NCBI GenBank assembly: GCA_963921275.4
Contig: OZ001293.3
Span: 4,160,001-4,224,000, forward strand
DNA from: an uncultured Hormoscilla sp.
Lineage (GTDB): Bacteria; Cyanobacteriota; Cyanobacteriia; Cyanobacteriales; Desertifilaceae
DNA length: 64,000 nucleotides
Reading direction: 5' to 3'
Positions 17,176-51,287 of this stretch are shown here, piece after piece. Numbering within the stretch: position 1 is the stretch's first letter; every line of letters begins with the position of its first letter. The position numbers and the translations under genes were made by a program. A model generated the notes under the pieces. It ran no database searches. It saw nothing but the letters and a program-made list of their open reading frames with translations, and was not told where the DNA came from.

Positions 17176-17455
17176 AGTCGGTGTTTCTTGGGAGCGCGAC
17201 GCGCATTACCCAGGAGACACCTTCGATGTGCTCTACGCGCGCTACCCGCACTGCTTAATGTGCTCTGCTGCTGTGTCTCCTGGGAGCGCTACTCGCACAA
17301 AAGGAGACACAGCGCGCGGTTGAGCACTGCGCGGCTGTGTCCTTGACACGCATGAGAAGATAGTATCTCATGCGTGTCAAGGGACACAGGGAGCACATTA
17401 ATCGCACATCGCCGAGACATCGTACTCGCACTACCCCTCGCACATCGAAGCAGCA
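17176..17455. repeat. Cluster of nested small palindromic elements
   Basis: GGTGTTTCTTGGG..CCCAGGAGACACC; CGATGTGC..GCACATCG enclosing GCTGTGTCTCC..GGAGACACAGC and CTGTGTCCTTGACACGCATGAG..CTCATGCGTGTCAAGGGACACAG. Confidence 0.85.
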
Positions 17456-19122
17456 TTCACAAGTTCCAAACGCTCAAACGCTGGCTGAGCTTTGCCTAAC
17501 TTCTGGTTGGCCGGTAATGCTCCCCAGCTGGCATGAGTATCAAAGGTCGATGTCTCCGGAGTAGTGCGAGTATGATGTCCCCCGGGTTTCGCCGTGCGTC
17601 CGGGGGACATCAAGCTCTCCGGAGACATCGAAGCCGACAAGATTGAACTTTGCCGATCGAAGTCGATGCTAAAACCCAGTTGCTGGTAGATAGCACTGCT
17701 GACACGGGGAATGACTGGCGAGAGCAGATAGGCGGCCAATCGCACCGATTCTAAAACTGCGTAGAGCACCTGTTCGGTAGCTGACTGTTTTCCCTCTTTG
17801 TACAGCTGCCAAGGGGCCTGCTCGTCAATGTACTTATTGCCAGCTTGTACCAAAGCCATAATTTCTGCGCAGGCTTTACTAAATGCTAGCACTTCGTAGG
17901 CAGCACAAACCCGATCGCCCAATCCTGCACCTATCTGTTGCAACAGGTTGTCTTCAGGAATTTCCGCAAGCTCCGGCACAGTGGAGCCGCAGTATTTCTT
18001 GGCCATGCCCAAGGTGCGATTCAGCAAATTGCCCAAATCATTTGCCAAATCCGCATTCAGGATATTGACAAACCTGGTTTCCTTAAAATCCCCATCCTTG
18101 CCAAATTCAATTTCCTTCATAAAGTAGTAACGAACGGCATCAGCTCCATAAGCATTGACGAGAGCGATCGGATCTACAGTATTCCCCAAGCTTTTGCCCA
18201 TTTTCATGCCATCTTTGGTTAAAAAGCCATGTCCAAATACGCGCTCTGGTACTGGCAGACCCGCTGACATCAGCATTGCTGGCCAGTAAACTGCATGAAA
18301 GCGTAAGATATCCTTGCCAATCAAATGCAAGTTAATGGGCCACCATTTGGCTAAGGCATTTGCCAAAGTCGGCGGCTCCTCTGGCTCCAGGAGTGCCGTT
18401 ACATATCCTAACAAAGCGTCAAACCAGACATAGATAGTATGATCTGAATCTACTGGCACCGGGAATCCCCAGTCGAGATTCACCCGCGAGATGGAAAAAT
18501 CTTGCAGTCCCTGCCTGACAAAGCCGAGCACTTCGTTCCGGCGGCTCTCTGGCTGGATAAAATCCGGTCGTTCTTCGTAAAGGGCTTCTAGCTGCTGTTG
18601 GTACTTGGAGAGTCGGAAAAAGTAGTTCTGTTCGTTTCGCCACTCAGTTTGTACGTTCTGGTGGATCGGACAGCGGTTATCTGAAGCGCGATCGCGTTCT
18701 TCTTTGAATTCTTCGCAGGATACGCAGTACCAGCCCTGTTGACGTCCTAAGTAAATGTCTCCTTTTTCCCACACCAAATTAAAGAATTCTTTAACAATTG
18801 CCTCGTGGCCAGGGGCTGTGGTGCGGCTGAAGCGATCGTACTGGATGTTCAGCAACTGCCAAATGGCCTCAAAGCCAGTGACAATTTGGTCGCAATGCTC
18901 TTGGGGCGATCGGCCCTTAGACTGAGCTGTGCGCTGAATTTTCTGTCCATGTTCATCCGTCCCTGTAATCATCAGCACCTCGCCGCCCCGCAACCGCTGG
19001 TAGCGAGCCCACACATCTGCCGCCATCGTCGTATAGGCACTACCGATATGAGGCAAATCATTGACATAATAAAGAGGCGTCGTAACAGCAAATCTCCGTT
19101 TTTCTCGATCGGTATAATTCAT
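17431..19122 (-). CDS. metG: Methionine--tRNA ligase, with an in-frame palindromic insertion near the C-terminus
   Basis: TTPLYYVN..PHIGSAY (HIGH), GTDEHGQKI, YVWFDAL, GKDILRFHAVYWP, KMGKS (KMSKS). Confidence 0.97.
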   Translation of the reverse strand: MNYTDREKRRFAVTTPLYYVNDLPHIGSAYTTMAADVWARYQRLRGGEVLMITGTDEHGQKIQRTAQSKGRSPQEHCDQIVTGFEAIWQLLNIQYDRFSRTTAPGHEAIVKEFFNLVWEKGDIYLGRQQGWYCVSCEEFKEERDRASDNRCPIHQNVQTEWRNEQNYFFRLSKYQQQLEALYEERPDFIQPESRRNEVLGFVRQGLQDFSISRVNLDWGFPVPVDSDHTIYVWFDALLGYVTALLEPEEPPTLANALAKWWPINLHLIGKDILRFHAVYWPAMLMSAGLPVPERVFGHGFLTKDGMKMGKSLGNTVDPIALVNAYGADAVRYYFMKEIEFGKDGDFKETRFVNILNADLANDLGNLLNRTLGMAKKYCGSTVPELAEIPEDNLLQQIGAGLGDRVCAAYEVLAFSKACAEIMALVQAGNKYIDEQAPWQLYKEGKQSATEQVLYAVLESVRLAAYLLSPVIPRVSSAIYQQLGFSIDFDRQSSILSASMSPESLMSPGRTAKPGGHHTRTTPETSTFDTHASWGALPANQKLGKAQPAFERLELVNAASMCEG

Positions 19123-36359: not shown

Positions 36360-36837
36360 TTCTACTCACTGCGTTGACTGCCCCAAGCCTGCCCCCTCGT
36401 CAAGTCCAGACCTGTATATTCAACGCATGTTGATTACCTGGGGGGCTTCGCCCTCCAATTACTCCTAACAACCGCCCGACAAGGTTTTGGCGATCGCCAA
36501 TCTCTTTTCTGCCATCACCAAAAAGCGAGTAGGGCGCTCAATTAGCCAACTCACAAATCAACTCGCCCATTCGATGTCTCCCGGACGCACGGCGAAAACC
36601 CGGGAGACATCGCAAGTTGGTACCTAAGATTGACAAATATATTTAAGGTGCTATAATAAAAATGATATCATCCCGCTTTGATCGATAAAGCGAGTAGGGC
36701 GCTCAATTAGCCCAGCAAGTTGGTACTTATTTGTTAATGTGAGTTATGGAGTGAGGTGGCAAAGAGTGAGGCTGACAAGACCCTAACGTTCCCGTTCTCC
36801 CATTATTCACATAAATGATGTGCTGGGTATCAGGCCC

Positions 36838-48711: not shown

Positions 48712-48777
48712 GCGCAACGAGGGTGGTATAATTAGGAATTGTGACTTTTTGACGAGGTTGACGAGGCTGGAAGTATT

Positions 48778-48915
48778 ATGACTAAACGCACCTTGGGTGG
48801 GACGACACGCAAACGCAAGCGCACCTCGGGTTTTCGCGCTCGTATGCGGATCAAAATTGGCCGCCGAACGATCAATGCTCGCAGAAGAAAGGGGCGTCAT
48901 CGCCTCAGCGTCTAA
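48778..48915 (+). CDS. rpmH: 50S ribosomal protein L34
   Basis: Hand translation [45 protein letters not shown] (45 aa, below the ORF-track cutoff). Confidence 0.97.
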
Positions 48916-48931
48916 TGATTCCGTAAGCGCA

Positions 48932-49513
48932 GTGTTACCGAAAGCCCATAGACTCAGATACTGGCGAGACTTTGAAGCAGTTTATCAGAGTCGAAGAAGT
49001 CGTCGCACCCCTCATCTGACTTTAAGAGCTTTGCCTCCGGTGTCCCCGGGTGAGGTGTCTCCTGGTGCTGCATCTCCTGGTGAGGTTTCTTCTGGGAGCT
49101 TGATGTCCGGGGGACATCATAGTCGCACTACCGAGGAGAAACTTCGCGCTAGTCGGACTACCCTGGAGACCACAGCGAGACGGTCTACTCGCACAAAAGA
49201 GGGGACACCGCCCCAACCTCAGCACCAGTCGCAGGTCGATGCGCCGGTTGCAGCAGGGTCGCAGCCAACGCGGGTTGGTATTGTTGTGGGCAGGAAAGTC
49301 AGTAAAAAAGCTACGATCCGCAATCGGATCAAGCGGCGACTGCGGGCCTGTATGCGCCAGTTGTTGCCGAGTTTATCACCTGGTTGGCAGCTGGTAGTAA
49401 TGGCCCGACCAGCAGCAGGGGAGTGCGATTCTGCTCAATTTCTGCGAGAATTAGAGCAGATGTTGGCAGAAGCGGAGGTACTCAATGGGGATTCGAGAGG
49501 ACGTGTATTATGA
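48932..49513 (+). CDS. rnpA: Ribonuclease P protein component with an in-frame insertion of about 57 aa
   Basis: LPKAHRLR...DFEAVY, RVGIVVGRKVSKKATIRNRIKRRLR (RNR motif); follows rpmH. Confidence 0.93.
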   Translation: MLPKAHRLRYWRDFEAVYQSRRSRRTPHLTLRALPPVSPGEVSPGAASPGEVSSGSLMSGGHHSRTTEEKLRASRTTLETTARRSTRTKEGTPPQPQHQSQVDAPVAAGSQPTRVGIVVGRKVSKKATIRNRIKRRLRACMRQLLPSLSPGWQLVVMARPAAGECDSAQFLRELEQMLAEAEVLNGDSRGRVL

Positions 49514-49877
49514 GGGAGGACCCCATATCGGTGATTTGATCTTCAATCTGTTGCTGGGATTGCTGATAATATTTTTGCCCCTGACAGTGGGGGCAATAGT
49601 CAGGGCCCTGTGGCTGCGCTACCGGATAACCAGTCGCCGCATCTCGGTTACAGGTGGCTGGATGGGACGCAATCGGGCCGATCTGATCTATTCGGAAATC
49701 ACCAATATAGTAAAGGTGTCTCGCGGACTAGGCTTCTGGGGAGATATGGTCATCACCCTCAAAGATGGTAGCAAGGTAGAACTCAGAGCCATCCCCAATT
49801 TTCGAGAAGTATATAACTACATCAACGAGAAAATGCCTAGCAAAGCAAAAAAACAGAGTGCTGCTAAAAGTAGTTAA
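49485..49877 (+). CDS. PH-domain (bPH_2) membrane protein
   Basis: YEGGPHIGDL, RYRITSRRISV, WGDMVITL.DG; lies between rnpA and yidC. Confidence 0.85.
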   Translation: MGIREDVYYEGGPHIGDLIFNLLLGLLIIFLPLTVGAIVRALWLRYRITSRRISVTGGWMGRNRADLIYSEITNIVKVSRGLGFWGDMVITLKDGSKVELRAIPNFREVYNYINEKMPSKAKKQSAAKSS

Positions 49878-50090: not shown

Positions 50091-51287
50091 ATGGACTTTG
50101 GTATCGGTTTTCTCAAAAACAATGTAATGCTGCCGATCCTAGACTTTTTCTACGGGATCGTGCCCAGCTACGGATTAGCGATCGTGGCTCTCACCCTGGT
50201 AATTCGTACTGCAGTCTACCCTCTGAGTGCAGGCTCCATTAGAAGTATGCGTCGCACGCGAGCGGTTCAGCCCTACATGCAGAAGCGACAAGAAGAAATT
50301 AAGACTAGATATAGAGACGACCCAACCAAGCAGCAGGAGGAGATGGGTAAACTCTTCAAGGAAGTGGGCAACCCTCTGGCAGGGTGCTTGCCAGTGCTGT
50401 TGCAAATGCCCGTGTTGTTTGCCCTGTTCGCAACCTTGCGGGGTTCGCCCTTTGCTAATATAAATTACTCAGTCAATCTGGAAATATTTCCCCAAGCACA
50501 GATTGAGCGCATAGTGCCCCAAGCATTTGCCACTAAGCCCCAGAACATCTATGTAGCAGATGGGGTACGGGCACCAGTAGTGGCTTTGCTTCCAGGGGGC
50601 AATAAGCTGGGGGTGGGAGAAAAAACTAAGGTATTGTTTCAGACGACCGAAGGCAAACCATTCCAAGATATATTAGCAGAAAACCCGGAAGCTAAGCTGG
50701 TAACTGAATGGACAGTGCTCAAGGGCGAAGAACGAGTACAGATAGATGCCCAGGGCAATATAGTAGCCCTCCAGCCCGGAGAAGTCACCATTCAGGGAAC
50801 GATACCAGGGTTAGCCGCTAATAAAGGATTTCTATTCATCAAGGCTCTAGGCCAGGTGGGGGCAGTTGGTGAAAATGGGGAAATAAATTGGGATATTGTG
50901 GGCATGGTACTGTTTTTTGGCATCAGCTTGTATCTCAACCAGAATCTCTCAGGTCAAGGAACAAGCAATGCTAACGCTCAGCAGCAGACGGTTAACAAAA
51001 TTACGCCAGTGTTGTTCTCAGGCATGTTTTTGTTCTTCCCGCTGCCAGCTGGAGTATTGATGTACATCGTGATAGCTAACATTTTCCAAACGGGCCAGAC
51101 GTTGATTTTGTCCCGGGAGCCTCTGCCGGAGAACATCCAAAAAATAGTAGACGCGGAGGAGGCTAAGAATGTAAAGGAAGAGAAAAAAGATGTCCTGCCA
51201 TTTGAGCCGAAAAGTTACAAGAAGAAAGAGAAAACAGAACCAGAACTGACGAAAAAATCGCAACGTGCTAAAAAGAAAAAGATGTGA
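50091..51287 (+). CDS. yidC: Membrane protein insertase YidC
   Basis: [36 protein letters not shown]. Confidence 0.96.

Follow-up and report, generated by a model that had tools for sequence, protein, structure and literature searches.

The Rickettsia palindromic elements (RPEs), reportedly described by Ogata et al. in 2000, and the SDR1-8 group of small dispersed repeats from Nostoc punctiforme and its relatives, said to have been described by Elhai et al. in 2008 (Genome Res 18:1484), appear by analogy to be the closest counterparts of the repeat units reported here from the cyanobacterium Hormoscilla. To our knowledge, Rickettsia is the only textbook example of essential genes being colonised in frame by selfish palindromes, RPEs are not known for self-nesting, and SDRs have not been described as in-frame additions to essential proteins. 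Going by their descriptions, RPEs are set apart by a length of about 100-150 bp and their occurrence in Rickettsia, whereas the Hormoscilla unit is only 42 nt long, combines a conserved loop with variable stems and is stacked up to about five deep. RPEs and Hormoscilla units are both palindromic repeats lying in frame within many unrelated housekeeping ORFs of a host-associated bacterium, and both encode a family-typical peptide that is apparently compatible with protein fold and function (PMC10969869, PMC3733652). By description, Nostoc SDRs share with Hormoscilla units an occurrence in cyanobacteria, a very small size, the potential to form hairpins, compensatory changes and confinement to one lineage each; some SDRs lie inside copies of themselves and the Hormoscilla units are likewise nested, but SDRs measure 21-27 nt against 42 nt. 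No SDRs are reported to have been found outside Nostocaceae (PMC5861425).

Two further groups of bacterial repeats share features with the Hormoscilla units. REP/REPIN sequences, which RAYT tyrosine transposases mobilise, are likewise short, high-copy hairpins with a GTAG motif, lineage-specific abundance and occasional intragenic copies (PMC3733652; see also PMC3116915). The GTAG (or CGTC) tag of REPs lies outside the stem (PMC3733652), whereas in the Hormoscilla units it is found within the loop (GG-GTAG-TGCGA). We do not assign the units to the REP/RAYT system, given this position of GTAG and because the flanks of the RAYT-like gene in this genome carry another REP family and not the Hormoscilla units. 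Bacterial MITEs (Correia, Nezha, ERIC) resemble the units as non-coding inverted repeats with presence/absence polymorphism and occasional in-frame fusions, and are described as 70-300+ bp long and as having a cognate IS, target duplications and TIRs that are conserved (PMC10969869). MITE-type traits of the Hormoscilla units are 12-bp complementary arms in 271 of 652 sites and presence/absence at rnpA, rpoB and metG; unlike in MITEs, the termini vary while the loop is conserved, the three sites compared carry no TSD, and no parent IS was found among the Y1_Tnp and TnpB loci whose flanks were compared. The missing TSD speaks against placing the units in the classical MITE families. Our literature search found no published description of such elements in Hormoscilla, nor of RPE-like in-frame elements in cyanobacteria, and the main text of the comparative-genomics paper on Hormoscilla uses none of the terms 'palindrom', 'mobile' and 'insertion'.

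The locus considered here is the rnpA gene of an uncultured Hormoscilla sp., within a window of 64,000 nucleotides (the whole stretch of DNA that was analysed). The gene is part of a conserved rpmH-rnpA-(bPH_2)-yidC arrangement (Table 1), and a genome-wide search returned a single full match to rnpA in the 7.03-Mb genome under study (G000), which was compared with four other Hormoscilla genomes (G001-G004), namely three sponge-associated MAGs and one sediment MAG. The match of RnpA to the Pfam profile (cut-off 22.3 bits) falls into two stretches that are split by the insert, with profile positions 38-108 aligning at residues 110-181. In agreement with the sequence-only reading of this locus, no stop interrupts the frame and the RNR motif (IRNRIKRR) is intact; residues K122, V123, S124, K125, R130, N131, R132, K134 and R135 are present and invariant across 116 sequences. 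Judged from its sequence (VLPKAHRL.., compared with MLPKAHRL or MLSKAHRL in homologs), the gene likely starts at GTG 48932, and the ORF listed for it begins further upstream, at 48797. Gene callers also add an N-terminal extension of 19-23 residues to the Hormoscilla RnpAs P0001-P0004, P0008 and P0010, starting from an upstream ATG that overlaps the 3' end of rpmH (window 48797-48931). This extension is probably a start-site miscall, because other alleles start at MLPK or MLSK.

Table 1. Coordinates of the rnpA insert, its parts, its neighbouring genes and two further hairpin elements of the window.
Feature	Position	Strand	Remark
rpmH (ribosomal protein L34)	48778..48915	+	ORF; Pfam PF00468, 55 bits; upstream neighbour of rnpA
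rnpA (RNase P protein)	48932..49513	+	PF00825, 91 bits
bPH_2 membrane protein gene	49485-49877	+	downstream neighbour of rnpA
yidC	50091-51287	+	last gene of the conserved arrangement
Nested hairpin repeat stack, in frame, 174 nt (58 codons)	49038..49211	+	boundaries +/-3 nt
Outer left arm CGGTGTCCCC	49038..49047	+	perfect 10-bp inverted repeat with GGGGACACCG
Outer right arm GGGGACACCG	49201..49210	+	perfect 10-bp inverted repeat with CGGTGTCCCC
Second and third left arms GGTGTCTCCTGG, GCATCTCCTGG	49052..49080	+	15-nt register
Fourth left arm GAGGTTTCTTCTGGG	49082..49096	+	pairs with 49131-49145, 80% of 15 nt; in MFE structures
Tip hairpin TGATGTCC-GGG-GGACATCA	49101..49119	+	arms 49101-49108/49112-49119
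Core copy 1 TAGTCGCACTACC	49120..49132	+	reverse complement of family loop motif GGTAGTGCGAnTA
Core copy 2 TAGTCGGACTACC	49150..49162	+	CGCGC before it is the family's loop-tip GCGC
Core copy 3 TACTCGCACAAAA	49186..49198	+	TTTTGTGCGAnTA variant of loop
metG element, one unit + H hairpin, in frame near C-terminus	17540..17630	-	open frame 17434-19122
Stand-alone H-type hairpin GATGTCTCCCGG ACGCACGGCGAAAAC CCGGGAGACATC	36573..36611	.	same arms, other loop type

Read from GTG 48932, RnpA is 58 aa longer than the empty-site allele P0006 (135 aa, ..RALPPQLQHQSQ..), and the additional segment, which encodes PVSPGEVSPGAASPGEVSSGSLMSGGHHSRTTEEKLRASRTTLETTARRSTRTKEGTP, lies between the beta-strand ..HLTLRAL and ..TRVGIVV. 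Flanking CCG/CC repeats leave an ambiguity of 2-3 nt in its boundaries. Comparison with the empty-site alleles thus gives a length of 174 nt instead of the 173 or 171 nt read from the sequence alone, and no support was found for the terminal CG target duplication that had been suggested with the shorter figure. The same reading had described a perfect 10-bp outer inverted repeat, further inner arm pairs and three core copies, and all of these are present. The inner pairs include a pairing of the second arm (49057-49065/49162-49170) besides those of the fourth arm and of the tip hairpin, and the third left arm, GCATCTCCTGG, is without a clear partner. The left arms follow a 15-nt tandem periodicity, absent from the sequence-only description, which appears in the protein as an SPGEV-type peptide repeat. 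The tip hairpin equals an H-type unit (see below) minus the loop of 13-14 nt (GTTTCGCCGTGCG) that is present in most genomic copies, and the loop variant of core 3, TTTTGTGCGA, has 122 occurrences in the genome. On the other strand, the insert is parsed exactly by the nesting grammar of the family into four arm layers and a loopless H-type tip, with one right arm lacking a good partner.

Folding of the insert, which had been proposed as a check, gave statistics of weak significance. The predicted RNA and DNA folds recover the concentric arms, and the RNA fold reaches -79.3 kcal/mol compared with a shuffle mean of -69.2 (z -2.2), a value matched by 4 of 200 shuffles, or by 5 of 200 for DNA. As the folds only modestly beat shuffles, the structure of the insert on its own is weak evidence, and a single 10-bp inverted repeat within about 300 nt is not rare by chance. 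A chance origin is disfavoured by the recurrence of 14-mers of the insert, which are found in 4-35 copies in the genome vs 0.05 expected, and by the genome-wide nesting grammar.

The arms and cores of the insert recur hundreds of times in the genome, so that the sequence-only reading, which a lack of such recurrence would have refuted, stands on this point. They belong to a repeat family built from 42-nt hairpins, each with a 12-bp stem that is variable and co-varying in its arms and with the conserved loop GTAGTGCGAnTAGCGCT. The commonest form, with 135 un-nested copies of 42 nt, reads GATGTCTCCnGG-GTAGTGCGAnTA-GCGCT-CCnGGAGACATC, where the stem with the consensus GATGTCTCCnGG is variable among copies and complementary within each, and the loop GTAGTGCGAnTA-GCGCT is asymmetric. 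A sister unit, H, has stems like those of the basic unit around the loop GTTTCGCCGTGCG. Unit lengths are multiples of three, with 42 nt for the basic unit and an addition of 39 nt by H. All 33 genomic copies of the seed TCCGGGGGACATCA stand in one architecture. Among the 652 GTAGTGCG sites, 271 have an 11-nt upstream arm that is complemented downstream (at least 10 of 11 positions within 150 nt), compared with 5.4% after the arms had been shuffled between copies. With 116 distinct arm sequences among these 271 sites, the stems vary yet stay complementary in each copy while the loop is conserved. In two-layer forms, a complete unit with different stems directly follows the ..GAnTA or ..TAGCGC of the outer loop; deeper stacks obey the same rule, and nesting adjoins the GCGC tip. 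At one pair of sites 1.8 kb apart (C1:2207856 and 2209678), the element copies have flanks that are identical over at least 170 nt, and we regard this pair as a local duplication carrying the element because of these identical flanks.

A second hairpin family, GTTCCC-(8-14 nt)-GGGAAC, has 410 matches genome-wide, with both strands of the palindromic pattern counted. Its subtype GTTCCCAGGCAGAGCCGTGGGAAC often stands directly after the ..GCTAnTCGCAC core of the first family and before GAGGGGGGGACAC, a configuration also seen in the rnpA inserts of G003 and G004 (L003 and L002), and other GTTCCC..GGGAAC copies adjoin GGGGCTAC (REP-like) contexts.

Among the genomes searched, the repeat family is restricted to Hormoscilla. 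The loop motif GGGTAGTGCGANTA occurs 271 times in the genome under study; for the remaining four Hormoscilla genomes the counts are 121, 88, 76 and 24. In 26 relatives of other genera it was found 0-1 times each, and in 400 phylum-wide cyanobacterial genomes, a few of which overlap with the 26 relatives, 0-2 times each. The reversed control pattern likewise occurs 0-2 times per genome.

Natural alleles of rnpA range from empty to multi-layered. Between HLTL and GIVV, the DNA measures 108 nt without any repeat in G001, 147 nt with one layer in G002, 240 nt in G003, 276 nt in the genome under study and 300 nt in G004, where the insert contains a 60-nt tandem duplication. At the protein level, four alleles are empty (P0006, P0008, P0010 and P0009/L005), and the filled ones are longer by 13, 15, 32, 46, 58 and 66 aa, with P0007 (+13 aa) and P0004 (+32 aa) as intermediates. 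An alignment of orthologs, suggested earlier as the means to define the empty site, thus found four Hormoscilla-type alleles without the segment and no equivalent ancestral loop; the loops of more distant cyanobacteria are short and unrelated. The clean empty alleles P0006, P0008 and P0010 (..ALPPQ.QHQS..) are known solely as proteins, and the sole empty allele seen as DNA, in G001, differs slightly in its flank (..RAFFLTPQP..). None of the rnpA alleles contains a stop, and every length difference is a multiple of three. The outer left arm is common to all filled alleles seen as DNA, with one mismatch in G002, G003 and G004, and the tip hairpin differs in G003 and G004 (GTTCCC..GGGAAC). A further allele is seen in an assembled contig (X6), in which positions 49100-49164 are replaced by 17 other letters.

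Empty and filled sites were also found at two other essential genes. The rpoB insert, 243 nt long here, is absent from G002, G003 and G004 (GGCTTCGAT|ATACC), the flanks of which are 96-99% identical. The metG site, in a frame with the Pfam domains tRNA-synt_1g and Anticodon_3 (L035), has no element in G001 or G004 and one unit in each of G002 and G003; the genome under study has that unit plus H, with the H hairpin sitting between AGCT and the core. Degenerate units (cores TCGCACAAAA and TCGCACTACC; arms GTGTCTCC) form an intergenic cluster in the window (17250-17440), immediately beyond the 3' end of metG and adjoining the in-frame element. Outer arms are kept and the interior differs in the allele series of both rnpA and metG. 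No target-site duplication was seen at the three sites compared (rnpA, rpoB and metG), just ambiguities of 2-3 nt. Small additional in-frame indels lie beside the elements at the compared sites, and the insertion events are therefore not clean. The distribution is incongruent across sites, as G004 has a multi-layered rnpA and an empty metG site, which points to additional loss or recombination.

According to our analysis, the rnpA segment is very probably a selfish stack of four arm layers and a tip hairpin that belongs to a Hormoscilla-specific family of very small palindromic repeats. We posit that, in an ancestor of the lineages associated with sponges, a first unit would have inserted into the beta-hairpin loop at the RnpA surface, and that later units would have entered the loop of the resident unit on either side of its GCGC tip, as they appear to have done genome-wide; some layers were perhaps swapped in by conversion from other copies. 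The proposal of about four successive insertions, each into the previous element, stands with regard to nesting, given the 135 single units, the two-layer forms and the allele series. As to the number of insertions in rnpA, four arm layers and a tip hairpin are seen, with GCATCTCCTGG lacking a clear partner, and the addition of every layer in situ is a candidate history.

A competing account of how the layers came together is that a multi-layer block was copied into rnpA whole, or arrived by ectopic gene conversion from a nested locus via shared arms. We consider this account rather unlikely, although it has to be taken seriously. The rpoB composite, with about five layers, is wholly absent in three congeners, and its parts follow one another as in the rnpA insert (tip hairpin, core, arm, CGCGC, core, arm, core(AAAA), arm); for these two reasons, some layers may well have arrived en bloc or by ectopic conversion. 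The interiors of rnpA alleles moreover differ by whole modules, including the tip hairpin in G003 and G004. On the other hand, a blastn search with both inserts found no donor, that is, no near-identical block in the genome for either. The best genome match covers 118-160 nt at 71-85% identity, and the best paralog of the rnpA insert is 71% identical over 160 nt, the values also obtained with the rpoB insert, which has the same multi-layer architecture. The shared order is also predicted by the general nesting grammar, and the rnpA alleles with one layer and with two to three layers that have the same outer arms fit stepwise growth.

Local replication errors, meaning slippage and quasi-palindrome template switching within rnpA with a parallel origin elsewhere, are an improbable source of the insert. 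Such errors would be in line with the 15-nt periodicity of the left arms, with the 60-nt tandem duplication in G004, and with the 116 variable yet complementary arm types, which template-switch 'perfecting' of palindromes would yield. They do not explain why a conserved 17-nt loop and the H unit are found at hundreds of unlinked loci and why the family is absent from related genera, nor can the duplication of one arm produce inner and outer layers with different, individually complementary stems. Replication errors may shape copies, but cannot found the family. Within the selfish-stack reading, the covariation of the arms might have arisen because a hairpin intermediate was under selection, or through quasi-palindrome repair by template switching.

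In-frame elements extend well beyond rnpA, the one gene of the sequence-only reading. Out of 20 long open frames carrying in-frame elements, 16 have Pfam matches, among them RpoB, MetRS, CobN/Mg-chelatase H (chlH/cobN), a PEP-utilising enzyme (ppsA-like), ARC6/Ftn2, two aminotransferases with the element inside the domain, a CbiG-methylase, a TPP enzyme and others. Such loci are under-represented, with 32 of 225 verified loci (14%) in long open frames (at least 80 codons open on each side of the element) compared with 30% of random spans. The length is divisible by three in all 32 in-ORF loci, which partly follows from how the set was chosen, vs 134 of the 193 other loci. CGCACTAC is on the coding strand in 28 of the 32, and 19 of the 32 use the single phase that gives xSPGSAxRTTxET. 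The rnpA insert has the favoured strand and phase (..SPGEV..SRTTEE..SRTTLET..). The fractions of 42-nt units that are open in the three phases are 0.98, 0.0 and 0.99 on the GTAGTGCG strand and 0.6, 1.0 and 0.99 on the other strand. Stop codons are ruled out as the whole cause of the 28:4 strand bias, since the GTAGTGCG strand is open in two of three phases; because stops alone fall short, the encoded peptide or an insertion bias must contribute.

From this dependence on frame, strand and phase, which is our main argument, we infer that the inserts are translated. In one strand and phase, the units would encode a hydrophilic peptide rich in Ser, Pro, Gly, Thr and Arg (..SPGSATRTTQET..), and selection would filter copies for a length of 3n, strand, phase and an exposed position. 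Owing to the 3n length and the hydrophilic peptide, copies in the right orientation and phase would be read through and survive selection in exposed loops.

For RnpA, alignments to solved RnpAs map the insert to a hairpin loop; the strand that follows this loop continues into the RNR helix. In an AlphaFold2 (AF2) model built on the 116-sequence alignment, residues 1-40 and 111-186 have a pLDDT of 77-90, with helices at 11-18, 127-147 and 167-180 and strands at 29-34, 114-119 and 153-158. Most of residues 41-110 score below 50 (block means 43-48) and show no secondary structure. The model hence predicts a disordered loop on an intact alpha-beta core, and RnpA would thereby carry a disordered loop of roughly 70 residues on an otherwise intact fold.

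The insert might also have been retained as an exapted extension of benefit to RNase P, whether by supplying extra basic residues that bind RNA or in some host-related role, as RnpA is an RNA-binding protein and the insert is rich in Arg, Lys, Ser and Thr and has been kept in frame in several species. We regard such a function as quite improbable, given that close species differ in length and sequence (+13 to +66 aa), that four alleles are without the insert, that the same peptide is found in unrelated enzymes and that the insert is predicted to be disordered. Removal of the segment before or during translation, by RNA processing or translational bypass with a protein of normal size as the result, is highly implausible despite an RNA able to form a long nested hairpin (-79 kcal/mol) and an expression contig that reaches only 13 nt into the segment, because frame, strand and phase would then not matter (yet they do, in 32/32, 28/32 and 19/32 loci), all rnpA alleles are stop-free, and we know of no bacterial mechanism that excises such hairpins and religates mRNA.

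That expression contig (X23, 206 nt, from an RNA library) covers only 48845-49050. In the comparison of sequencing runs over rnpA, which comprised four runs, all of them consisting of contigs, another contig (X1, 4415 nt) is identical to the window over 48770-49520 and may come from the source sample. Inserts of this kind inflate and fragment gene calls and break short-read assemblies, in which contigs end at the repeat.

Under the selfish-stack reading the units would be mobile, and a comparison of Y1_Tnp and TnpB-type loci in the genome identified no mobilising gene. Y1_Tnp has two matches, the better of which is RAYT-like (C1:241711-242259; L025 1417-1965; PF01797, 69 bits). This gene is flanked on both sides by arrays of the other REP family, GTAGCCC..GCGCAGGCGGGC, with HIP1-like GGCGATCG spacers, an arrangement that resembles a classical REPtron with no relation to the rnpA-type units. 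The TnpB-type domain has eight matches. No family motifs were found at the flanks of the two Y1_Tnp loci or of seven TnpB loci. Six TnpB-type loci (C1:51375, 194608, 1401355, 3756492, 6147866 and 4427919; L063-L068) share a stretch that is more than 99.5% identical, over about 1.8 kb in four comparisons and 0.9 kb in one, with an open frame of 564-573 aa in five loci and of 288 aa in one. By its sequence this element looks like a recently active IS, and no hairpin-family motifs lie within 1.5 kb of the six loci.

A bolder proposal, to which we give somewhat less than even credence, is that these units are previously undescribed mobile hairpins of 42 nt whose conserved loop is at the same time their preferred landing site, which would be the reason why the family stacks into itself. 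By virtue of their 3n length and hydrophilic phase, they would colonise exposed loops of the essential proteins RnpA, RpoB, MetRS and ChlH in a sponge symbiont. They might then be a cyanobacterial counterpart of the RPEs with a different, loop-targeted insertion chemistry, and a source of new disordered protein segments. If a cyanobacterium living with sponges provided a second independent case, such colonisation would be seen to recur in other host-associated bacteria. In Hormoscilla, the unit is far smaller and nests in itself, and five genomes provide natural empty, one-layer and multi-layer alleles; for these reasons the case offers a tractable system for the study of element movement and of how proteins tolerate or perhaps exploit such additions.

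Two other features of the genome were noted. The HIP1 sequence (GCGATCGC) occurs 9,476 times, about once per 740 bases. One contig (C3, 31,420 bases) has a G+C content of 17.6% compared with 47% for the main chromosome, and may not belong to the cyanobacterium; an organelle or the replicon of another organism would be examples of such a source.
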